64,000 bases of DNA from a virus. Below, in pieces: positions 914 through 47,331 of this stretch. The notes beneath the pieces are model-generated. The model ran no database searches, was not told where the DNA came from, and was given only the letters and a program-made list of their open reading frames with translations. The position numbers and the translations under genes are program-made. Every line of letters starts with the position of its first letter. The stretch's first letter is position 1. The stretch lies in the IMG/VR virus record IMGVR_UViG_3300026290_000001, one strand, 5' to 3'.

Positions 914-1444
914 ATGAAAATAATAAATATATCGGGCAAGGCGCAACACGGGAAGGACACAACGGCATTAATTTTAAAAAAGAAATTAGAATCAAAAAAT
1001 AAAAAAGTTATAATAACTCACTATGCAGACCTACTCAAATATGAAGCAAAACAATTTTTTAATTGGGACGGAAATAAAGATGAAAAAGGTAGACAAATAC
1101 TTCAGTATATGGGTACTGATGTAATAAGAAAAATAAATCCTGATTATTGGGTTAATTTCATTAAAGAATTTATGTCAATGTTTGAAAATGAATGGGATTA
1201 TGTAATAATTCCTGATTGCAGGTTCCCCAATGAGATTGAAGTGTGGGGCATTGATAATTGGCCTAATGTATCGGTTAGAATTATTAGAGATAATTTTATT
1301 AGTAATCTCACTCCTGAACAATTAAATCATCCATCTGAAACTGCTTTAGATGATTATGAATTTGATTATTACATATTTAATTCTGATGATATAAATTATT
1401 TAAATAAAGAAGTAGATTATTTAGTTGAATGGCTGGAGGTATAA
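914..1444 (+). CDS. deoxynucleoside monophosphate kinase (T4 gp1-like)
   Basis: N-terminal P-loop ISGKAQHGKDTT, followed by LQYMGTDVIR, YVIIPDCRFPNE and HPSETAL. These occur in the same order as in T4 gp1-type dNMP kinases. Confidence 0.75.
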   Translation: MKIINISGKAQHGKDTTALILKKKLESKNKKVIITHYADLLKYEAKQFFNWDGNKDEKGRQILQYMGTDVIRKINPDYWVNFIKEFMSMFENEWDYVIIPDCRFPNEIEVWGIDNWPNVSVRIIRDNFISNLTPEQLNHPSETALDDYEFDYYIFNSDDINYLNKEVDYLVEWLEV

Positions 1445-2002
1445 ATGAAAAGAAAGTTTTTTATTGATTTTGATAATACAATTATAGATACAACCAACGC
1501 TTTCTGCGCAGTTTATAATGAGCTTTATTGCGATCATCCTAATTTTAAAACAGCAGAACCAGATCAAGTTAAGGTTTACAATTTTTCTGACGAATGTCCT
1601 TTAGTTACAAATGTAGAAGAAATTTTTACTCATCCATTATTCTTTCAATTTGCAGAATTTATAAATCACAATACATATGAAACTCTAGAAAAATTAAACA
1701 ATAAATATCAACTTATAGTATGTTCAATAGGTTGGCCTAAAAACTTAGCATACAAGGCACGTTGGTTGGAAGAAAAACTACCTTTTATTAAAGACTATGT
1801 TCTAATCAGTAATCCTACATGCAAAATGAATAAGAGCATTGTAAATATGGAAGGTGCAATATTTTTGGACGATATACCGTCAAACTTATATAGTTCAAAT
1901 GCTGAAAGAAAGATATTATTTGGTAAGAGATATATTTGGAATAAAGAATGGGATGGAGAATGGGTAAGAAGTTGGAGTGAAGTTGAAGGAAGGTTTTTGT
2001 AG
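1445..2002 (+). CDS. HAD-family 5'(3')-deoxyribonucleotidase-like protein
   Basis: HAD motif I FIDFDNTIIDT at the N-terminus and a later FLDDIPSN motif. Size and layout match NT5C-type nucleotidases. Start overlaps the upstream stop (TAAATG). Confidence 0.65.
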   Translation: MKRKFFIDFDNTIIDTTNAFCAVYNELYCDHPNFKTAEPDQVKVYNFSDECPLVTNVEEIFTHPLFFQFAEFINHNTYETLEKLNNKYQLIVCSIGWPKNLAYKARWLEEKLPFIKDYVLISNPTCKMNKSIVNMEGAIFLDDIPSNLYSSNAERKILFGKRYIWNKEWDGEWVRSWSEVEGRFL

Positions 2003-2892: not shown

Positions 2893-3609
2893 CTACTTCT
2901 TCAATTCTTTAAGTAAATATTCAACGGCATTATCAATTAAAACAGCACATTCTATTCGTGTAATACTACTATTAGGATCTAAAATCCCATCGCCTTTACC
3001 AGAAAGTATTTTCTTCTCATATAATCTATCTGCACTTTTTGCTCCCCAATGATCTTTAGGCAAGTCTTTAAAATACTTTGACATTTCTTCAATCACCTTA
3101 CCTTTCAACAATTCCTTCTGAACTTCATTTTTAAATTTATCCCATGTCCAACCTAAATGACCTGCTCTTATTAAACGTGGACAATTTTTTCCATTCCAAT
3201 CCCAATGCTGTCTTAATGATTCTACATTTTTATTTTTAGATTTTAATAATTCTGCCACAAGTAAAACTGCATTTTCTAATGTTTTTTGGTAATTCCCACT
3301 TTCACATATTTCAATTCCTATACTACGTCTATTACCAGCACCACTTCCTCCATCTCCTGCGTGCCAAGCATTTTCAAATAAAGGAATACATTCAATTGCT
3401 TGTTTTTCATCAATGGCAATATGATAACCTGTAGAAGATGTATTTGAAGGATTGGTTAAATAATCTCTTTCATTTCTTGCAGTAGATTTTGAATTCCCTG
3501 TGTTGTGAATAGTAATATATTCCCAATCCATTTTATATTTTGGACGTTTATTAGAATTCATAGGAATGTGATCTATTACATAAGGAAAAGGTAAATTAAA
3601 TTTACTCAT
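2893..3609 (-). CDS. endolysin: N-acetylmuramoyl-L-alanine amidase (Amidase_2/PGRP) with C-terminal SLH domain
   Basis: Catalytic domain segments YITIHNTGN, GYHIAIDE, WHAGD and NCP. The C-terminus FKDLPKDHWGAKSADRLYEKKILSGKGDGILDPNSSITRIECAVLI matches the S-layer-homology motif. Confidence 0.85.
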   Translation of the reverse strand: MSKFNLPFPYVIDHIPMNSNKRPKYKMDWEYITIHNTGNSKSTARNERDYLTNPSNTSSTGYHIAIDEKQAIECIPLFENAWHAGDGGSGAGNRRSIGIEICESGNYQKTLENAVLLVAELLKSKNKNVESLRQHWDWNGKNCPRLIRAGHLGWTWDKFKNEVQKELLKGKVIEEMSKYFKDLPKDHWGAKSADRLYEKKILSGKGDGILDPNSSITRIECAVLIDNAVEYLLKELKK

Positions 3610-3873
3610 TTATTTTTCACCACCTTTAACTAATCTCTCAATAAAGTCCGTTCCAGCATATCCAACGGTAATAAAAACTATCATTATCAACTTGCTTGTT
3701 TCAACACCTAGTAAGGCAATAGCAGTTATAGTCCCAATAGCACAACTTACCAATAAACTTATAAATATTTGAGGTAAACTTTTATTGTTATTTACAACCA
3801 TTCGTAAGACTTGACCTGCCATTCCTAAGATTGCACCTAGCAAAATAAATGATTGAACTTCAAAAATATTCAA
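3610..3873 (-). CDS. holin-like small membrane protein
   Basis: 87 aa with three hydrophobic spans and a charged C-terminus (ERLVKGGEK). Its stop abuts the endolysin start, the usual holin-endolysin arrangement. Confidence 0.55.
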   Translation of the reverse strand: MNIFEVQSFILLGAILGMAGQVLRMVVNNNKSLPQIFISLLVSCAIGTITAIALLGVETSKLIMIVFITVGYAGTDFIERLVKGGEK

Positions 3874-4435: not shown

Positions 4436-4888
4436 CTACTTTAAAACCATACTTATCACTGCACCAAATCCCATAGACATTGCAATTATAAATAAATTCT
4501 TTAAAATATCTGATAATTTTATTTTATTATCACCACTTACTTCATCAATCTTCTTGCTTAATTTCTCCACACTAACTTCTGTACTGTTCATTCTATTGCT
4601 TAGTACGTCTAATGAATTACTGATCTTCGCTTGATTTTCACTAATTTCAGCAATCAATTTATCTCTTTTAATTCCGTCTTCTCTCTGTAATTTTGTGAGC
4701 AATTGGAGTTCGGACAAAACACTTGTAATATCATATATTTTGTTTGTTTGGCTTTCCAAATCATCTATACGGTGATTTGCCACCTTTATTTTTTCATCAA
4801 CATTCTTAAATACTTCGGCACAAATTTTTGGTTGTTCACATTCTTGATTTATGACCAATTCACAACACCATCCAATCTTTGTATTCAT
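4436..4888 (-). CDS. XhlA-like lysis-associated protein (coiled coil plus C-terminal TM)
   Basis: I place the start at the ATG at 4886-4888, preceded by AGGAGGA; the longer track ORF to 5017 has no RBS. Cys-rich N-terminus, HRIDDLES coiled coil and C-terminal TM FIIAMSMGFGAVISMVL. First gene of the lysis cassette, as xhlA is in PBSX. Confidence 0.55.
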   Translation of the reverse strand: MNTKIGWCCELVINQECEQPKICAEVFKNVDEKIKVANHRIDDLESQTNKIYDITSVLSELQLLTKLQREDGIKRDKLIAEISENQAKISNSLDVLSNRMNSTEVSVEKLSKKIDEVSGDNKIKLSDILKNLFIIAMSMGFGAVISMVLK

Positions 4889-4907
4889 TCCTCCTTTGCG
4901 GTATAAT
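4879..4907 (+). promoter_or_regulatory. sigma-A-type promoter candidate (TTGTAT-17 nt-TATAAT)
   Basis: -35 TTGTAT at 4879-4884, a 17-nt spacer, and -10 TATAAT at 4902-4907. Overlaps the antisense RBS and start of the XhlA-like gene and points away from it. Confidence 0.45.
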
Positions 4908-4913
4908 GGGTAC

Positions 4914-4996
4914 AAGGTAATTAATTTGACCGCAAAATTAATTACCATAACGAATAAGGCAGGATACCTATTTTTATCCTGCCTTATTTTTATTTT
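4914..4996 (+). ncRNA. candidate ~80-nt small RNA, antisense to the leader of the lysis cassette
   Basis: Lies downstream of the 4879-4907 promoter. Perfect 12-bp hairpin GGTAATTAATTT/AAATTAATTACC (4916-4946). Then a 10-11-bp GC-containing hairpin (4956-4985) followed by ATTTTTATTTT on the plus strand, an intrinsic terminator in the plus orientation only. No plus-strand ORF. Confidence 0.4.
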
Positions 4997-5032
4997 ATTA
5001 AATTTAAAAAATCTCAAAAAATCATTTTTAAG

Positions 5033-5097
5033 AATCCCAATATATAGGGATTTCTAAACCCGAAAATTTGAACCAAATTAAAGATTTGTTATGATAC
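5033..5097. repeat. Repeat B: partner of repeat A
   Basis: 5033-5048 equals 2448-2463 (direct). 5065-5078 (AATTTGAACCAAAT) is the reverse complement of 2498-2511, with an imperfect extension to about 5097. Lies 16 nt past the stop of the recombinase gene. Confidence 0.7.
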
Positions 5098-5112
5098 AAA
5101 ATAAAAACATAA

Positions 5113-6117
5113 TTATTGATAGAAATATTGAGTATAACTTTGTTGCTTGTGTTCAAACGTTTGTTTTGCGTAAATGCCCGTAGTTTGAATATCATCATGA
5201 CCTAAAAGTTCTTGTAATACCGACATTGGACAACCGTTATTTAGCATCAAGGTTGCGAAAGTATGTCTGAGCATATGGGGATGAGTTCTCTTGTCAAGCC
5301 CTGCACGTTTACCTATTGCTGCTATTTCTCGTTGAATACCTCGATTGCTTAATCTTCTATATTCCTGCCGTTCTGTTACAAATAATGCTTCACAGTCATC
5401 CTTACGACTTTCAAGATATTTTTTAAGGTAAATTGCAGCTCTAGCAGAATAGAATACAATTCGCTCTTTGTTTCCTTTGCCTAATACCTTAATCGTCCGA
5501 TTTGATTGTCCTATATCATCTTTATTTAGTGCCGATATTTCAGATAATCGACAACCTGTTGAATACATAATTTCAGTTAATGCTTTTTCTCGCAAAGTGA
5601 AACAACTTTCACGGAATAGTTCCAATTCTTCAATTGTTAATGCCTTTGCCATTGCTTTTCCCACTTTATAAGGTTTAATTCTAATCATCGGATTTTCTTC
5701 AATAATCTGTTCCTCACAAAGCCATTCAAAGAAACTGCGAAGTACTGAGCGAATTGTCTCAACAGTACTTTTAGCATTTACTGTTGGGTCGCTTTCCCGA
5801 TCATCCAGATAGTTAATTATGTCCTGCTTGGTTATTTCATTTACTGGTTTTTCTTCGGTTCTATCGGTAAATATTTTAAGATGAAGTCGATAATTATCAA
5901 TAGTTATTGGACTTAATCCTTGCCGTTTTTTATCCTTCAAAAACAGTTTTATGTTTTTCCGCAAATTATAATATTCTGGATCGCTGTTTTGTTTTATAAC
6001 TCTGTATTCATCAAGAATGGAGGCTAATTGATTTTTAGCCTCCATCTTATTCATGCCTTTTTCTATGATTCCATCTACAATTTTAGCATATAGCTCATAA
6101 TTGAGATTAGGGTGCAT
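5113..6117 (-). CDS. tyrosine recombinase (XerC/XerD-like phage integrase family)
   Basis: N-terminal SAM-like core-binding domain (ITIDNYRLHLKIF, TIRSVLRSFFEWL). Catalytic segments TGCRLSEI, HPHMLRHTFAT and LGHDDIQTTGIYA. RBS AAAGGAGG upstream. Confidence 0.9.
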   Translation of the reverse strand: MHPNLNYELYAKIVDGIIEKGMNKMEAKNQLASILDEYRVIKQNSDPEYYNLRKNIKLFLKDKKRQGLSPITIDNYRLHLKIFTDRTEEKPVNEITKQDIINYLDDRESDPTVNAKSTVETIRSVLRSFFEWLCEEQIIEENPMIRIKPYKVGKAMAKALTIEELELFRESCFTLREKALTEIMYSTGCRLSEISALNKDDIGQSNRTIKVLGKGNKERIVFYSARAAIYLKKYLESRKDDCEALFVTERQEYRRLSNRGIQREIAAIGKRAGLDKRTHPHMLRHTFATLMLNNGCPMSVLQELLGHDDIQTTGIYAKQTFEHKQQSYTQYFYQ

Positions 6118-6691: not shown

Positions 6692-7843
6692 TTAAAAATA
6701 CACGAGGCGAGCGCCGATAACCGAATACTTTTCAGACTCCGAATAACCCACATGCAGCCGAAACGCCCCCGCCTTATCCGCAGCCGACCAATCACCACCG
6801 AAACGCGGCAAGCGCGAAACATTCAGAACCGCGGAATCGGGATAATGCGTGCTTTCGCTTCCGTTTGCTGTTTTGACGATAAAACCCGTTTCCGTACCAC
6901 CTTGTATGTCGTCTATGTAACCGACTATATTCGTTGTCGCACCCTGTCCGTAATTTGTATATCCAGAACCAATATCGTTAAAACTTTCATTGCCGATTAG
7001 GATGTTTCGGTCTGCATCACTAAATAATCCGTCAATCCAATAGTAAATATTACCCCAAAAATCTTCTATGCCACAAAATTTTAATTGTTGTTTTCCTGTA
7101 GTTTCACCATAGAACATACCTTTAGCATTTGTAGCACCCGTATTAACTTTGGCACTATTCCCATCGACATAACCTCTGCCTAAAGCAGTTTGCCAATCCC
7201 TACTCTTAAACATCACCGTACCTAAGACTTGCAACATTAAAAGTTGAAAATAAGCCATTTGGTCATAACCACTGCCATTCGCCTGTGCAATAGTTCTAAA
7301 TGCACCGATAGTTTCATAAGCGGTTGTTATTTTTCCGCTTAAACTTCTTAATTTAGAACCGTCAGAATATCCTAAATAAGCTGAAATGTAACACTTGGCT
7401 TTTTCGGTTGTACCCCTCATATGTGCTAAACATTTATACCCACTATCTACCTTTGCATTAGCATATCTTACATACAAGTCAGTCCCAATGGTTTCAAATT
7501 TCCACCAAATCTTAGGAAATTCAATCATTACGTCACCATCTGCACCACTTGTAATGTCTGCATTTGTCCCGTCAATTTTTTTAGTATAATCGTTTGGATT
7601 TAGATAGTATTGCACCACTCCATTTTTAAGTAAACATGGTTTAATCTGATTAAATGGAAACTTGTCTTGCCAACTACCATAAGAAAAATTGCCATTATTT
7701 CCTTGGGCTGGAGTAAAACCTATTGCATTATCTGTATAGGCTAAAGCAGTTTCGGGGTTGCTATTTGTAGTATCAATTTTGATGCCATATATTTTAGGTG
7801 GTGATTTTACTGGTTTTCTTTTCCTAATTAATGCCTCACCCAT
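6692..7843 (-). CDS. receptor-binding protein with C-type-lectin/FGE-like fold and Mtd-like (DGR-target-type) C-terminus
   Basis: FWGNIYYWIDG resembles the GNVWEW motif of FGE/CLec folds. The C-terminus RFGGDWSAADKAGAFRLHVGYSESEKYSVIGARLVYF parallels the Bordetella-phage Mtd variable region (FGGNWNN..NIGARGV). Locally GC-rich and A-poor. Confidence 0.6.
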   Translation of the reverse strand: MGEALIRKRKPVKSPPKIYGIKIDTTNSNPETALAYTDNAIGFTPAQGNNGNFSYGSWQDKFPFNQIKPCLLKNGVVQYYLNPNDYTKKIDGTNADITSGADGDVMIEFPKIWWKFETIGTDLYVRYANAKVDSGYKCLAHMRGTTEKAKCYISAYLGYSDGSKLRSLSGKITTAYETIGAFRTIAQANGSGYDQMAYFQLLMLQVLGTVMFKSRDWQTALGRGYVDGNSAKVNTGATNAKGMFYGETTGKQQLKFCGIEDFWGNIYYWIDGLFSDADRNILIGNESFNDIGSGYTNYGQGATTNIVGYIDDIQGGTETGFIVKTANGSESTHYPDSAVLNVSRLPRFGGDWSAADKAGAFRLHVGYSESEKYSVIGARLVYF

Positions 7844-8686
7844 TTACCTCACCACCTTTAGCTGAATTGGCAAACTAACTTCAGGTTTATCCATCGCATA
7901 TAATGTTATAGAATTATTAGCAGTTGTTACACGATAAATTTTACCCCACTCATTTACTCGTTCTTTATCTGTAGCAAATGTGCCACTCATTACTACGTCA
8001 ACTATAGGATTGTCATTTGACGATATTCCAGTTACCGTTTGCGTTTTCGTATATGGGGCTTCTGTACCTGTCCAAGTAGTATCAAGTGTTGTCGTAAGCG
8101 TAGCGTGATATACGTGTCCTAATTTACTTATTGTCGCACCATCTGCCAGATGGTTAGCAAACTTTTTCCCAACCCCACTAACCAAAGGTCTTTTATCGAC
8201 AATTATATTTACAGTTTTATCCGCATTTGTACTAATAGTACCAATTAATAGACTTCCATCTGTAATTGTTCCATCTATACTACTAGCAAAATTTCCATCA
8301 TTTTTAAGATATATAGTATAGGTTATACTGGCCGATACTGGATTAATAGTAAAAGTTGTATCAGATGTTTTAGTTATAGTATTTATTGTATTTCCACTAA
8401 ATGTTTCACCAGTACCACTAGCAATAACTATACTTAATGTATCTGTACCACTCGTATAAAATGCAGATTTTATTCTAAATGGACTATCCAATTCTAATGA
8501 ATTTAATAAAAATCTCGCATCTTTCCATGTTGCTCCTAAATCTCTAGGATCAGTACCACCTAAAGTAACATTTGCATCATCAGCAACATGGATAATATCT
8601 AAACCACTATATTTATTTCTAATTTCTGCTACTTGCTCATCTGTATGTATAGCAAATACTTTGCTATTTTTAATTACACAAATCAT
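7844..8686 (-). CDS. tail fibre protein (short paralogue)
   Basis: Residues ~70-181 are homologous to residues ~106-219 of the neighbouring 587-aa fibre (..TDTLSI.I.SG.GE.F....NTITKTSDTTF.INPVSAS.TY.IYLKNDGNF..). The C-terminal domain is distinct. Confidence 0.6.
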   Translation of the reverse strand: MICVIKNSKVFAIHTDEQVAEIRNKYSGLDIIHVADDANVTLGGTDPRDLGATWKDARFLLNSLELDSPFRIKSAFYTSGTDTLSIVIASGTGETFSGNTINTITKTSDTTFTINPVSASITYTIYLKNDGNFASSIDGTITDGSLLIGTISTNADKTVNIIVDKRPLVSGVGKKFANHLADGATISKLGHVYHATLTTTLDTTWTGTEAPYTKTQTVTGISSNDNPIVDVVMSGTFATDKERVNEWGKIYRVTTANNSITLYAMDKPEVSLPIQLKVVR

Positions 8687-8705: not shown

Positions 8706-10469
8706 TTACACTATTATCCATGAACCTTTATTTCCCTCAGAATTAGGTTCAGGAGAGAAAATAGGACTGCCACTATAATTAGAACAACGTACATATCCAT
8801 TGTTATATGCAAATATATCAATTAAACCTGCATCACCAACATTAGAATTTGAAGCAAATAAAGAACCTTCTTCACAACAATCTATATTGTATTCCACATT
8901 GTTTTTTGCAATAATTCCCGAACTAAATCCTTTTCCACCATTATTAACTGTTAATCCTGATTTATTTCCACAAACACATATATTTTCTGCCATCATACCC
9001 CCACCAGTAGAATCATAAGCACCTTTTTCAGAATTACCATTTGCTATACAATTATTTATATAAATCCCTGCGAAATTGGAACATTCATAACCATTTTCAT
9101 TATTGGAAGATGCTGTATATGGTGCAGTAATACCTGCTCTGTTAGTTACAAAAAAACCAGATTTAAAACCAGATACTCCAACATTTGTACCACAAGTTAT
9201 GCTTGCGCCTGTTGTTGATAATATTCCATAATTAGTACTAGCATTAGAACCAATAATTGCAACATTATTTAATAATCCTAATTCAGAACGGTCAGCAACA
9301 ATACCATTACAATTTGTAAATTTTAACGTTGTAGTTAAAACAACAAAATCTCCACCCGTTAATGCAACAGCAGGGAATGGAGTACCTTGAAAAGTATTTT
9401 TAACCGTTACTACGTTTCCATTTATATTTATAATTTCATACATTCCACGTAAAACTTCATGATTACCTGTGCCTGTAGTATTTTTTATAATAGCATATTG
9501 TCCTACTTGCATACCTACTGCACTAGCAACTGTTATAGGTACAGACCAATTTCCAGCAGTATCAGAAACACTACCTACGTTTGAAACGGTTGTGGCAATA
9601 GGAGTAGCACCAATTATTCTTATATTAGAACCATTAACATGATTTATTTTAAGTTGAGAAGTATGTTCATACATTTCTGTTAATAAAGAAATAGTTACAG
9701 TAGTTGAACTAGTTATACTAGCAGTTTTTATACTATCTAAAGCATTTGGTATTGTAGTAAAATCACATCCAGTAGAGCCAACAGTTATAGTTTTATTGGC
9801 ATCTATAATAGTATCTGTTAAATGTTTAATAAATTCACTACCTACAGCACTAACTAAAGGTCTTTTATCAGTAATTGTATTTATAGATTTATCTGCATTG
9901 GTACTAATTGTTCCTATTAAAATACTTCCATTTGGAATACTACCATTTGTACTTTTATCAAAATTACCATCATTCTTTAAATAAATATTATAGGTCACGC
10001 TAGCACTTACTGGATTAATATTAAAAGTAGTATCAGATGTTTTTGTAATAGTGTTTAAAGTAGTACTATTAAAACTTTCACCTGAACCCGAAGTAATTAT
10101 TATTGATAAAGTATCTGTTACTGAATTATATTCAGCAGATTTTATCTGAAACGGATACCCATATACATCTTCTACATTACTTTTTAAACTATCATGATCA
10201 TATGCTGTAAATAATCTTCCTATTATCGTTCCATTACTCCATGTCTGTGCTGTCCCTTGAAATCCCCTAGTTACACCAACCAAACTACTACCACTTTTAT
10301 CTGTATATAAAATAGTTTCTGCATTATTACCAGTTCCTATAGTAGCAAGATTAGGTGCATTGGGAAAAACTGAAATATCAGTTACGGGGATGGTAGTTGC
10401 AATACTATTTATATCAGAAGAAAGTGTTGTAAGAGGGGAGTTAATTTTAGCATTATACATTGTTTCCAT
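8706..10469 (-). CDS. tail fibre/tailspike with C-terminal parallel beta-helix
   Basis: N-terminus of the widespread prophage-fibre type (ATIGTGNNAETILYTD..VTRGFQGTAQTWSNGT..TAYDH). The C-terminal half consists of Gly/Asn-rich ~22-aa turns (NCNGIVAD, NVAIIGSNAS, GASITCGTNVG, NNCIANGNS), typical of PbH1 beta-helix depolymerases. Confidence 0.7.
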   Translation of the reverse strand: METMYNAKINSPLTTLSSDINSIATTIPVTDISVFPNAPNLATIGTGNNAETILYTDKSGSSLVGVTRGFQGTAQTWSNGTIIGRLFTAYDHDSLKSNVEDVYGYPFQIKSAEYNSVTDTLSIIITSGSGESFNSTTLNTITKTSDTTFNINPVSASVTYNIYLKNDGNFDKSTNGSIPNGSILIGTISTNADKSINTITDKRPLVSAVGSEFIKHLTDTIIDANKTITVGSTGCDFTTIPNALDSIKTASITSSTTVTISLLTEMYEHTSQLKINHVNGSNIRIIGATPIATTVSNVGSVSDTAGNWSVPITVASAVGMQVGQYAIIKNTTGTGNHEVLRGMYEIININGNVVTVKNTFQGTPFPAVALTGGDFVVLTTTLKFTNCNGIVADRSELGLLNNVAIIGSNASTNYGILSTTGASITCGTNVGVSGFKSGFFVTNRAGITAPYTASSNNENGYECSNFAGIYINNCIANGNSEKGAYDSTGGGMMAENICVCGNKSGLTVNNGGKGFSSGIIAKNNVEYNIDCCEEGSLFASNSNVGDAGLIDIFAYNNGYVRCSNYSGSPIFSPEPNSEGNKGSWIIV

Positions 10470-13104: not shown

Positions 13105-14397
13105 TCAGTCATGAGATGAATTGGCTCTGTTCTGTTCATATATAATCCATGATTTTCTTGCATTAATTCTTTGCATGTTAGATATTTTCGGTGTCTTCAT
13201 ACCTCTGGGTGCATTACTAAAATCTATTTTTTCACCATCTATACCCATAAGAATGGCATAACCCGTAGACATTCTACCTTTAATAAAATATTCATTACCT
13301 ATATACCTTACTTTATCAAACTTCCTAAATCCTTCTATTTTACCTGTAGGTATCTTCTGATGACTTCTTACTCCTTTTGCCTGTTGGTAATCGCCTTTAG
13401 GGATACACTTTTTTAATACAGCTTTTTCAGTTTTAAAGCTTACATCAATTAACCCTATATCTTCAATATTATTTAAACAGGCAATAGCTACAGCATCGTA
13501 GTAATGCTCTTTTGGTAATCCCATTAGCTGTCTATGTTCTTTGGTAATAAATCCAAAGGTTTCTTTTGCATTTGGTAGCTGTCTTAATAATTGTTGTCTT
13601 ATACTATTCATCTGTGTTGTGTGTTTTAATTGTCCTTTAATTTTACCATTCTTCTTTAATTTAATTCCTCCTTTGTGCAAACTATTATGACAAGTTTTAC
13701 AAAGTGTAATTAAATTTTCTGCATCATCTGAGCCACCATTTTTTCTAAAAACTATATGATGTACCTCTAATCTGCTGTCTTTACTTTTTCCTTTGCAATA
13801 CTGGCAAATATATTTATCTCTACTTAATACATAAGCTTTAGTATTAGCAAATCCATAATTAGTTCCTTTTTGATAAAGCCATTTATTACTTAATACTGCT
13901 GGATTTTTTAAAGCATGTGGGTCAAATGTTGCTGTTTCTATTATTATATTTGTAATGGGCATTATTGATTTTGCAAAATCAATTTCTTTTAAGTGTGAAT
14001 TAATTTTACTTGTCATTGTAGGAGAAAATCTATCTTTTTTAATGCTGTTTTTCCTATTATTAAATCTAGGTTCCCTATATCTAGTTTTCCTATTCCTTCT
14101 AGTTCTCCTATATTTAGCTCTTTTGTCCATTTTGTCAGATATATCATTTCTAATTTCTACTTCTGATATATAATACACTTCATTTTCGTCATTTGCTACT
14201 GCACTTCCTATTTTACTACTACCAGTATCAATTCCTAAAGTTAAATCTTGTGTATAGTCTGTAGCATGATATAGTAATTTAATTGTAAATGGAGTTCTTC
14301 TTATGCATTTTGCTTTACCATCTTTTAACAATAATCTTGCTATTGCTGGTTTACAAGGCATTAAAGGACTCCCATCTTCATTAATTACATAAACCAT
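13105..14397 (-). CDS. iscB: IscB RNA-guided endonuclease (PLMP-RuvC-bridge helix-HNH-RuvC)
   Basis: Domains in order: PLMP (SPLMPCKPAIARLLLKDGKA), RuvC-I (LGIDTGSSKIG), Arg-rich bridge helix (RAKYRRTRRNRKTRYREPRFNNRK) and RuvC-II (IIIETATFD). Then HNH (CQYCKG..EVHHIVFRKNGGSDDAENLITLCKTCHNSLH), RuvC-III (EHYYDAVAIA) and a C-terminal beta domain (FDKVRYIGNEYFIKGRMSTGY). Confidence 0.9.
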   Translation of the reverse strand: MVYVINEDGSPLMPCKPAIARLLLKDGKAKCIRRTPFTIKLLYHATDYTQDLTLGIDTGSSKIGSAVANDENEVYYISEVEIRNDISDKMDKRAKYRRTRRNRKTRYREPRFNNRKNSIKKDRFSPTMTSKINSHLKEIDFAKSIMPITNIIIETATFDPHALKNPAVLSNKWLYQKGTNYGFANTKAYVLSRDKYICQYCKGKSKDSRLEVHHIVFRKNGGSDDAENLITLCKTCHNSLHKGGIKLKKNGKIKGQLKHTTQMNSIRQQLLRQLPNAKETFGFITKEHRQLMGLPKEHYYDAVAIACLNNIEDIGLIDVSFKTEKAVLKKCIPKGDYQQAKGVRSHQKIPTGKIEGFRKFDKVRYIGNEYFIKGRMSTGYAILMGIDGEKIDFSNAPRGMKTPKISNMQRINARKSWIIYEQNRANSSHD

Positions 14398-14681
14398 AAA
14401 ATCAAATCCTTTCGGATAAATACTCTGCTTAAAAGCAGGTTATGCGTATCTATATACTATTACCATATATAGAATTCGTCCTCATCTCGACAATGATAAA
14501 ATAGCTTATATGTATATCACACCGAGCCTTACCCTCCAACTCTACTTAGTGATATACGATAGAGCAATGGTCTGATGCGTCAACCAAAGGTATCATAACT
14601 ATTCTATCGTAGTATAAATTTCTCTATACTAAGTCTGGTGAACTTAGACTTTAGAAGCCTCCGACTTTAGTCGGGGGTAGT
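14398..14681 (-). ncRNA. candidate IscB omega-RNA scaffold
   Basis: Non-coding and visibly GC-richer than its surroundings, directly upstream of iscB. Minus-strand helices: CCCCCGAC/GUCGGAGG, AAGUCU/AGACUU, long-range CUACGAUAGA/UCUAUCGUA, CUGCU/AGCAG, and AUCC-GAAA-GGAU just before the start codon. Confidence 0.6.
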
Positions 14682-14927
14682 TCACTCTATTTCAGGATTG
14701 ATAGATAAATCATCTTTGCTTGTACTATTTACATTAGATAAATTATCTTCATTGGACAAATCATCATTAATAATTTGACTTAATTCGTCTATTTTAGAAC
14801 TTAATTTGATAATCTCTATCTGATACATATTATTTTGTAAACATAAAGTGACTACATCTAAGGGCAAATTACTATTGTTTATTAACTCTGCCAGTTTAAT
14901 ATTAAAATCACTTATAATAAAAATCAC
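14682..14927 (-). CDS. hypothetical protein
   Basis: 81-aa acidic ORF in the minus-strand tail array. Its TGA stop (14682-14684) directly abuts the omega-RNA-like region. Confidence 0.4.
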   Translation of the reverse strand: MIFIISDFNIKLAELINNSNLPLDVVTLCLQNNMYQIEIIKLSSKIDELSQIINDDLSNEDNLSNVNSTSKDDLSINPEIE

Positions 14928-34590: not shown

Positions 34591-35124
34591 TTAATAAGCC
34601 TCAGGAATAAACTTTTTCCAAACAACTGTCGATTCAGAACCTTCTTTTTCACACCAGTAGTAATGTGGTGAAGCATAAACTACCACATTTCTCAACATAC
34701 TTGGAGTACCTAAAGAACCACTGGATAGTTTTTCTACATCATCTCCCCAAGATGCATTAGTGCAGTCTTCCGCAACTGCAACATCATTTCCGTCAGTACC
34801 TATAGTTTTATATTCAACCACAACAGTATCATCTTCTTTAGATGCTACAGCAGTTACTAATACAGAATTAGCATTTATAGCTTTTGCCAATTCTTCAACT
34901 GCCTTATCTGCTGTTAAAGTTTCTCCTAAAACAACTGCAATGTTTCCTTCTTGAGCATTCTCAGCAGCAACAACAAATTCATAAATTTCCGTTCCTCCGA
35001 TAGTAACTGTTTCTGCTACTACGGGAATTCCTTTAAAAGTAAGAGTAGCAGTAGCCTTGTGTGGATTTGTTGGGTGTTCTTCGCTAAACCATTTCTCCTG
35101 CAATTGCAAAGTTCCATATGCCAA
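34591..35124 (-). CDS. hypothetical structural protein
   Basis: 177 aa, Ala/Val/Glu-rich, in the head-tail region. No family recognised. Confidence 0.4.
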   Translation of the reverse strand: MAYGTLQLQEKWFSEEHPTNPHKATATLTFKGIPVVAETVTIGGTEIYEFVVAAENAQEGNIAVVLGETLTADKAVEELAKAINANSVLVTAVASKEDDTVVVEYKTIGTDGNDVAVAEDCTNASWGDDVEKLSSGSLGTPSMLRNVVVYASPHYYWCEKEGSESTVVWKKFIPEAY

Positions 35125-35149
35125 AATTAATTACCTCCTTTTCTTTATA

Positions 35150-47255: not shown

Positions 47256-47331
47256 TGGAGCCGAGTATAGGATTTGAACCCATAATCTGTTGTTTACAAG
47301 ACAACTGCCTTATCAATTTGGCTAACCCGGC
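47256..47331 (-). tRNA. tRNA-Thr (anticodon UGU), CCA encoded
   Basis: Minus strand folds by hand as GCCGGGT-TA-GCCA..AGGC-A-GTTGT-CTTGTAA-ACAAC-AGATT-ATGGG-TTCAAAT-CCTAT-ACTCGGC-TCCA. It has a 7-bp acceptor stem, a TTCAAAT T-loop and an anticodon loop with U33 followed by UGU. Confidence 0.85.

Follow-up and report, generated by a model that had tools for sequence, protein, structure and literature searches.

A conserved antisense small RNA gene predicted at the head of the lysis cassette in a family of uncultivated low-GC phages

Comparative analysis of an IMG/VR viral contig (virus record IMGVR_UViG_3300026290_000001; 64,000 nucleotides (nt), 29% GC, analyzed over its whole length and referred to below as the window) indicated that a previously undescribed gene for a cis-antisense small RNA (sRNA) of about 80 nt very probably lies opposite the leader of the lysis cassette. 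The predicted RNA occupies positions 4913-4996 of the plus strand (about 80-84 nt, with the start placed 6-8 nt past a -10 box and the end in a T-tract) and antisense to the lysis genes, which are on the minus strand. The broader statement, that this sRNA gene exists and that it also exerts negative control over the lysis cassette, is favored here with less assurance, as the better of the available accounts. An earlier reading of the same DNA, made from its letters (the sequence-only reading), had proposed an antisense RNA unit at the head of the cassette, and its core, a plus-strand RNA gene of about 80 nt, is now backed by a conserved -10 box, covarying hairpins, the strand of the T-run and the polarity of G·U pairs. 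The sRNA gene is convincing because of this comparative evidence and not because of the promoter match alone.

The module is located in the 224-nt intergenic region between a tyrosine recombinase gene and the first gene of the lysis cassette, which encodes a protein with a coiled coil and a transmembrane (TM) segment. A protein search with this coiled-coil protein returned 47 homologues, and the DNA of about 30 loci was taken, which gave 19 distinct module versions; the metagenomic relatives that carry them have downstream proteins of only 45-93% identity. The module was found directly upstream of the coiled-coil/TM gene in every retrieved locus, antisense to its leader, and the layout on the antisense strand was the same in every lineage: a -10 box, 4-9 unconserved bases, a hairpin of 9-14 base pairs (bp), 0-7 bases, a hairpin of 11-16 bp and a T-rich tail. 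The gene on the other side of the intergenic region varied, being the tyrosine recombinase in the window and XkdX, small open reading frames (ORFs), a Peptidase_C1-SPOR gene, a recombinase plus a peptidase, or a 76-amino-acid (aa) N-terminal recombinase remnant elsewhere.

A covariance model was built from the module alignment and searched over the loci. It recovered one strong copy per locus, always antisense, at 58-120 bits, with the exception of locus L015, in which two tandem copies were found. The match in the window (4872-5000, plus strand, 118 bits) was its sole strong copy, the remainder of the window giving weak palindromic echoes. When exact patterns of the hairpin cores were searched in IMG/VR, 10 other viral contigs matched and none of them carried the module (at most 28 bits). 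The second copy in L015 (2079-2340, 58.7 bits) is located upstream of the regular copy, and an 18-aa ORF (VKEIIIKYWTEFVFGVNF*) and a sense terminator are all that follows it, an arrangement that resembles a miniature type I toxin-antitoxin locus.

Both hairpins displayed extensive covariation. In the MAFFT alignment 22 of the 26 base pairs were compensatory and 87% of the cells held standard pairs, as compared with 32-50% when the partners were slid by 1-3 columns; the covariance-model alignment gave 24 of 26 compensatory pairs and 90.7% paired cells, as compared with 35-50% for the slid partners. The observed covariation score was reached by none of 500 shuffles on either alignment. Ten of the 12 pairs of hairpin 1 had changed on both sides and compensatory changes were seen in all 14 pairs of hairpin 2, so that stem sequences differed completely between lineages, with types such as GGTAATTAAT, GATAGTCCAA, AAAGGCAATC and AAAATGG for hairpin 1 and GGCAGGAT, GACAGGG, GGGTAAAGGA and AATGGTTAAGA for hairpin 2.

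Watson-Crick covariation is blind to strand, and it is the single mismatches that are informative in this respect. Counts of G·U and A·C pairs taken straight from the MAFFT and covariance-model alignments were blurred by loop-closing columns and by the misaligned long loop of hairpin 2 in the L010 family, and because the alignment-based counts were contaminated in this way, the stems were also delimited by hand. Within the hand-delimited stems, the internal non-Watson-Crick pairs comprised 10 that were G·U on the plus strand, and hence A·C on the sense strand, and none of the reverse kind (binomial p = 0.002). Seven stem variants of hairpin 1 contributed one G·U pair each and hairpin 2 contributed three, with no A·C pair in either hairpin; at some pair sites the full path from G-C through G·U to A-U could be followed across lineages, and the second copy in L015 contained two further G·U pairs. 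As C exceeds G on the plus strand of this region, a mutational bias would oppose G·U pairs on that strand rather than favor them. The polarity of G·U versus A·C pairs points to the folding of a plus-strand transcript.

Two further comparisons between the strands gave a similar result. The plus-strand fold was the more stable one in 16 of 17 variants, by a mean of 3.7 kcal/mol and by up to 15.7 kcal/mol, and the mean minimum free energy per sequence was -29.9 kcal/mol on the plus strand versus -25.5 kcal/mol on the minus strand. The 12-nt tail past hairpin 2 held on average 7.7 T on the plus strand versus 4.9 on the minus strand over the 19 variants; the sense tails had 3-7 T per 12 nt in runs of three at most, and no terminator was called on the minus strand of the window. 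These patterns indicate that the promoter core, both helices and the orientation of the terminator are under purifying selection on the plus strand, and that the unit is linked to the leader of the lysis cassette.

In the window, the 84-nt sequence 4913-4996 folded into two hairpins with a free energy of -33.3 kcal/mol, versus -8.3 +/- 2.8 kcal/mol for its shuffles (z = -8.9; none of 200 shuffles was as good). Hairpin 1 (4916-4946, plus strand) is a perfect 12-bp stem with arms at 4916-4927 and 4935-4946 and the loop GACCGCA, as could be read directly in the sequence and as had been claimed earlier. Hairpin 2 and its T-tract (4953-4999, plus strand) form the predicted intrinsic terminator: the stem (4953-4966 paired with 4975-4988; 14-15 bp in full, spanning 4952/3-4988/9) is GC-cored, contains AAGGCAGGAT (4956-4965) and ATCCTGCCTT (4976-4985), is followed by ATTTTTATTTT, and has the tail TTTATTTTATT. 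The view that this terminator works in the plus orientation held up, given that the terminator scan called hairpin 2 on the plus strand only and that its 12-nt tail contained nine T on the plus strand versus five on the minus strand. It had also been stated that no ORF is present on the plus strand; mechanical ORFs do exist there (4851-5057, 68 aa, and 4703-4906, 67 aa), though they are not conserved. A small protein encoded by 4851-5057 was considered and rejected, as loop indels of 1 and 4 nt in close relatives break the frame. No Rfam family was recognized by a gathering-threshold scan of the whole window or by a permissive scan of 4700-5200, which gave only sub-threshold, terminator-like matches, and literature searches brought up no report of an RNA of this type at an XhlA-type lysis cassette.

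Two observations concern the terminator hairpin and its immediate neighborhood. In loci L017 and L018 a stretch of 27 nt that covers the 5' arm and loop of hairpin 2 is repeated in tandem (CAAAGACAGGGTGTTATTTACTTTTGC, present twice), at about 90-150 nt from the gene start on its upstream side, and one complete terminator hairpin is still left. Beside the sRNA terminator, a block of about 85 nt (5000-5085, both strands) is near-identical in the window, L008, L022, L027 and L030 despite different upstream genes; it holds the hairpin AGAAATCCC-TATATAT-TGGGATTCT followed by T-runs in the sense direction, and may serve the upstream gene as a sense terminator or mark a recombination boundary.

The antisense promoter is predicted to consist of a -35-like hexamer, TTGTAT (4879-4884, plus strand), a 17-nt spacer and the -10 box TATAAT (4902-4907, plus strand), and these parts were found just where the sequence-only reading had placed them. 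Its description of the promoter as near-consensus was an overstatement: the TTG of the -35 hexamer is kept and only three of its six positions match TTGACA, the promoter scan of the window did not include this site in its output, and the pattern TTG-N16-18-TATAAT occurred 10 times in the window when 13.6 +/- 3.6 occurrences were expected. The -10 box itself is conserved in the relatives. Over the 19 distinct sequences, its six positions were T in 19, A in 19, T in 17, A in 18, A in 16 and T in 19, a G was present at -14 in 18, and the four bases 3' of the hexamer were essentially random. A TTG-type -35 element at 17-18 nt was found in the window, L011, L015, L016, L024, L025 and L029, the hexamers in relatives being TTGTAA, TTGTCA, TTGAAA, TTGCAA and TTGATA, and a poor -35 element was offset by a TGn extended -10 in L010, L014, L028, L032, L033, L034 and L035. 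The presence of either a TTG-type -35 or else an extended -10 is the pattern that would be expected of a working sigma-A-type promoter.

In the sense reading the TATAAT hexamer has no known meaning. ATTATA as a sense -10 box was rejected by reasoning, as the start site would fall inside the first Shine-Dalgarno sequence (SD1) of the leader. As the promoter scan showed no sigma-A-type sense promoter inside the intergenic region, the sense RNA presumably arises by read-through of transcription that started in the tail genes.

The leader opposite this promoter has two predicted ribosome-binding sites (RBSs). SD1 (AAAGGAGG, 4890-4897, minus strand; AGGAGG core at 4890-4895) is located inside the spacer of the antisense promoter and is kept in all relatives as AAAGGAGG, GGAAGTGAT or GGGAGATGAT. 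In the sequence-only reading the AGGAGG and the ATG at 4888 served as the RBS and start codon of the first lysis gene, an assignment that needs revision: the AGGAGG is just 1 nt from that ATG, which is a poor spacing, and most homologues begin 10 codons downstream of it, at the position of the TTG at 4856-4858, with an SD of their own. All relatives follow one plan, in which a strong SD1 is followed by a leader ORF of 3-14 codons and by a second, weaker SD 8-9 nt before the TTG; in most relatives the AGGAGG and ATG serve the short leader ORF and not the main gene. The leader ORF stops at the main TTG/ATG start or 7 nt past it, and the leader peptide reads MxTKIGWCCNW[S/Y]* in many relatives. 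In the window these elements (leader ORF, SD2 (GGATGG, 4868-4873) and conserved TTG start of the coiled-coil/TM gene) occupy 4856-4888 on the minus strand; a 1-nt difference in the window and L022, consisting of one extra base in the window, fuses the leader ORF in frame to the gene, with the start ATG at 4886-4888. An arrangement with two RBSs of this kind looks like translational coupling.

The overlap between the antisense promoter and these translation signals is somewhat different from what had been proposed, namely that the -10 box and spacer cover the RBS and start codon. The spacer and -35 element do cover SD1 and the first leader codons, with the -35 hexamer opposite leader-ORF codons 2-3; the -10 box is in non-coding sequence, 4 nt upstream of SD1. 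Likewise, the predicted RNA is, as had been claimed, a perfect complement of the leader upstream of the RBS, and a gap remains between the two: its start near 4913 falls upstream of both SD1 (by about 16 nt) and the ATG at 4888 (by about 26 nt), which leaves the RBS uncovered. A structure of the sense leader that would hide SD1 or SD2 was looked for and not found (z = +0.56). A pseudoknot between the sense loop of hairpin 1 (UGCGGU) and the ACCGCA beside SD1 was also rejected, since it is present in the window type and shows no covariation in L010, L016, L028 and L029.

Several points weigh against an sRNA gene that restrains the lysis genes. The promoter, the start site and the RNA itself are predictions from sequence, and the promoter match in the window, taken alone, is at chance level. 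The predicted RNA falls short of SD1, so direct occlusion of the RBS would not be expected, and past hairpin 1 the leader shows no significant fold for the sRNA to remodel (z = +0.56). The 10:0 ratio of G·U to A·C pairs rests on hand-delimited stems, and a coarser automated count, in which flanking extensions were permitted, came to 9 G·U versus 2 A·C. The relatives are not phylogenetically independent, so all such counts overstate the number of independent events. Finally, the sense tail is U/G-rich in some lineages and hairpin 2 may partly stop sense transcription, an activity that would account for neither hairpin 1 nor the -10 box.

One alternative is that the act of antisense transcription is what matters, with the polymerase blocking or colliding with late transcription, the RNA product idle and the hairpins serving just to terminate fast. 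The antisense promoter does sit right over SD1 and the leader ORF, pointing toward the late operon, the RNA leaves the RBS uncovered, and a short unit with a strong terminator suits such a device. Hairpin 1, however, is unnecessary for termination and is nevertheless kept, right at the 5' terminus of the RNA, in every lineage via compensatory changes and G·U intermediates, a pattern typical of selection for a stable RNA, and interference as the sole function is therefore considered unlikely; interference and RNA pairing can coexist. A sense-strand or DNA role for the hairpins with no antisense RNA at all, either as a terminator of the upstream gene plus a stem-loop that stabilizes or processes the 5' untranslated region, or as a protein-binding palindrome such as an operator or recombinase core site, appears improbable. 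It would fit the presence of hairpin 2 downstream of the upstream gene at every locus and the occurrence of some U in the sense tail, the 12-7-12 palindrome beside a tyrosine recombinase gene looks like a lox- or dif-type site, and Watson-Crick covariation alone gives no strand. Yet all the single mismatches in the hand-delimited stems read A·C on the sense strand, 16 of 17 variants have a weaker sense fold, the T-tract belongs to the opposite strand, and an invariant TATAAT at a fixed distance would have no known sense meaning. Moreover, the module is present at loci without a recombinase, its arms change completely and the window holds no partner site. Hairpin 1 as a recombinase site or operator was rejected for these reasons: L010, L016, L024 and L025 have the module without a recombinase, the arms covary to unrelated sequences, and no second full site was found in the window.

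It is also conceivable, at low probability, that the sRNA acts in trans, from a prophage against the lysis leader of incoming relatives (superinfection exclusion) or on another phage or host mRNA. STnc6030 of prophage BTP1 excludes superinfecting BTP1 by antisense pairing (PMC7067206), and the stem and loop sequences of the module split into several types among relatives, as antisense specificity groups do. The trans-target search yielded only two 14-nt matches, both AT-rich, one of which is at an RBS: nt 21-34 of the sRNA are perfectly complementary to the region from the SD to the TTG start of the gene 34591-35124, which has no family match (GGTAATTAATTTTG, 14 nt, at 35122-35136 on the minus strand). 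This match could be a trans target or chance. It is AT-rich, has an E-value of 0.015, lies inside the closed stem of hairpin 1 and was examined in the window sequence; in addition, the window phage has no integrase beside its lysis module, and a block on the lysis of an incoming phage would, on its own, leave the cell unprotected.

The genes around the predicted sRNA gene are arranged on the minus strand in the order tail gene (6692-7843), tyrosine recombinase (5113-6117), intergenic region and coiled-coil/TM gene (4436-4888). The last of these, the first gene of the lysis cassette, encodes a protein of 150 aa in the window and 140-150 aa across the relatives, with a coiled coil and one C-terminal TM segment, and is followed by two small ORFs, a holin (3610-3873), an Amidase_2+SLH endolysin (2893-3609) and Holin_LLH (2513-2872), all on the minus strand. 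The protein had been called XhlA-like, and it is so by its position downstream of XkdX in relatives and by its architecture only: the Pfam XhlA profile (PF10779) matched the 150-aa protein with 12 bits (E = 0.25), below the cut-off of 34.7, so it is not a member of that family. Convergent with the cassette are genes for a dNMP kinase (PF21448) and a 5'-nucleotidase (NT5C; the pair at 914-2002, plus strand), which occupy the place taken by an integrase in relatives. The window phage may therefore not be temperate, and the suggestion in the sequence-only reading that the RNA acts in the lysogen may not apply to it. Among cultured phages, a DNA search gave no match except for a short stretch of the endolysin, and a protein search of 50,697 phage records gave none; no relative was found in the GTDB representative genomes.

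The flanks of the module displayed further variation. In L027 the module is 100% identical to that of the window over 185 nt and the downstream protein is only 77% identical, and L038 has the module of the window but a different flank past the terminator; mosaic breakpoints appear to flank the module. A tyrosine recombinase of 323-334 aa recurs between XkdX or tail genes and the lysis cassette in the window (5113-6117, minus strand), L018, L019 and L021, even where the relative also has a large serine recombinase or an integrase downstream. In L008 only the 76-aa N-terminal remnant of this recombinase is left (666-896), the deletion ending at GGGATTC. L037, a 1-kb metagenome contig, carries at 1-190 repeats resembling clustered regularly interspaced short palindromic repeats (GTTTTTAGCGTACCTATGAGGAATTGAAAC, at least three copies) directly before a gene distantly homologous to the coiled-coil gene.

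Elsewhere in the window, an IscB-type gene (RRXRR + HNH, 430 aa, 13105-14397) is located directly downstream of a HEARO/omega RNA (14475-14685; Rfam RF02033, 121.7 bits) on the minus strand, and an RNA-guided nuclease module is thus present among the phage genes (13105-14685). A 300-nt direct repeat with 75% identity (8141-8440 and 9813-10112) falls in two large genes without family matches downstream of the tail gene (7844-8686 and 8706-10469), and a tRNA-Thr gene (anticodon TGT) is located at 47256-47331 on the minus strand.

The module was compared with antisense RNAs of other phages and of type I toxin-antitoxin systems. The sar RNA of phage P22 is a 68-69-nt antisense RNA of the immI region that lies opposite a strong phage promoter, covers the RBS of the antirepressor gene ant and blocks its translation directly. 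Like sar, the predicted RNA is a short cis-antisense RNA with an intrinsic terminator, whose promoter, within the 5' portion of the regulated gene, directs transcription back into the upstream intergenic region; unlike sar, it has its promoter rather than its RNA over the RBS, would pair only with the upstream leader, shares no sequence relationship with sar and has a lysis cassette rather than an antirepressor as its putative target. The OOP RNA of phage lambda, 77 nt long and made from a constitutive promoter, overlaps cII at its 3' end and takes part in the choice between lysis and lysogeny. The predicted RNA resembles OOP in size, in having its own promoter and a terminator hairpin, in its perfect complementarity to a phage mRNA and in its presumed RNase III-dependent action, but it is located wholly in the 5' leader and intergenic region of the lysis genes, overlaps no gene 3' end and has no Rfam or sequence match to OOP. 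The term OOP-like, used in the sequence-only reading, is thus apt in the generic sense of a short cis-antisense RNA and not as a statement of kinship, and the element is a member of neither the OOP nor the sar family.

In hok/sok loci, the mok leader ORF is coupled to the ORF of a hydrophobic toxin of less than 60 aa, and Sok covers the mok translation-initiation region. The arrangement of hok/mok/sok is paralleled here by a strong SD with a short overlapping leader ORF before a weak start, a membrane-active product and a small antisense RNA, predicted to be stable and constitutively expressed, aimed at the leader; it differs in that the predicted RNA stops short of SD1 and that the protein is 140-150 aa long and belongs to a regular lysis cassette with a holin and an endolysin. 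P22 sar is mentioned in PMC12197685 and the position of lambda OOP is described in PMC7067206. An antisense RNA tied to a lysis gene is known from PAK_P4as15, which was found by RNA-seq at the endolysin gene of the virulent Pseudomonas phage PAK_P4 and for which translational repression and a delay of lysis were proposed; it is absent from a related phage and is not reported to be conserved (PMC12197685). In contrast, the element described here shows conservation and covariation, is known from sequence alone and precedes the whole cassette instead of overlapping the endolysin gene. STnc6030 of the Salmonella prophage BTP1, an RNA of about 786 nt opposite the tailspike and injection genes, was shown to give superinfection exclusion (PMC7067206). 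It is likewise a prophage-type RNA antisense to late genes with its own promoter, made while the late genes are silent, but the element of the window is about 80 nt long and located at the lysis-cassette leader, and superinfection exclusion was demonstrated for STnc6030 alone. Three features by which cis-antisense sRNAs in general are recognized, a promoter of their own on the opposite strand, a terminator matched to that strand and covarying structure on the transcribed strand, were found in the module, and by analogy it may work like a classical cis-antisense sRNA.

Under the proposed model, a housekeeping-sigma promoter on the plus strand would fire, and the RNA would begin just before the 12-bp stem-loop and end at the terminator at 4953-4999. 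As the promoter is of the ordinary housekeeping type, the sRNA would be expected to be made before late transcription starts, and in lysogens of the temperate relatives. In late transcripts reading in from the tail genes, the sequence just before SD1 would be perfectly complementary to the RNA, so that pairing of the sRNA with the leader would give a duplex of about 80 bp. The duplex might be cut by an RNase III-type enzyme, or the unstructured region upstream of SD1 on which ribosomes land might be lost, or both, and either route would lower the translation of the lysis genes that are coupled to SD1 and the leader ORF. In addition, late transcription would run head-on into RNA polymerase that occupies the antisense promoter or initiates there. 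The net effect would be a threshold or delay imposed on the lysis cassette until late transcription outruns the sRNA.

A more elaborate version of this model, which is speculative and of low probability, likens the sRNA, SD1 with its leader ORF and the weak TTG start to a hok/sok-like post-transcriptional lock, in which the sRNA, produced constitutively, would silence leaky or premature transcripts of the cassette, the burst of late transcription would titrate the sRNA and so set the time of lysis, and the hairpin types would be specificity groups. If this were true, incoming phages with the same hairpin type could have their lysis cassette silenced by a resident prophage, which would amount to RNA-based cross-immunity at the level of lysis.

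The timing of phage lysis is usually explained at the protein level, by holin and antiholin clocks. RNA-level control of lysis cassettes is barely documented, the one proposed antisense RNA that was found being that of a Pseudomonas phage. The module also serves as an example of how the polarity of G·U versus A·C pairs can assign the functional strand of a hairpin pair located between convergent signals. In conclusion, these analyses suggest that a whole family of uncultivated low-GC phages has retained an antisense sRNA gene where its lysis cassette begins. It would constitute a new RNA family usable for the annotation of phage genomes and, if expressed, would offer a case in which an RNA brake or threshold on lysis can be tested.

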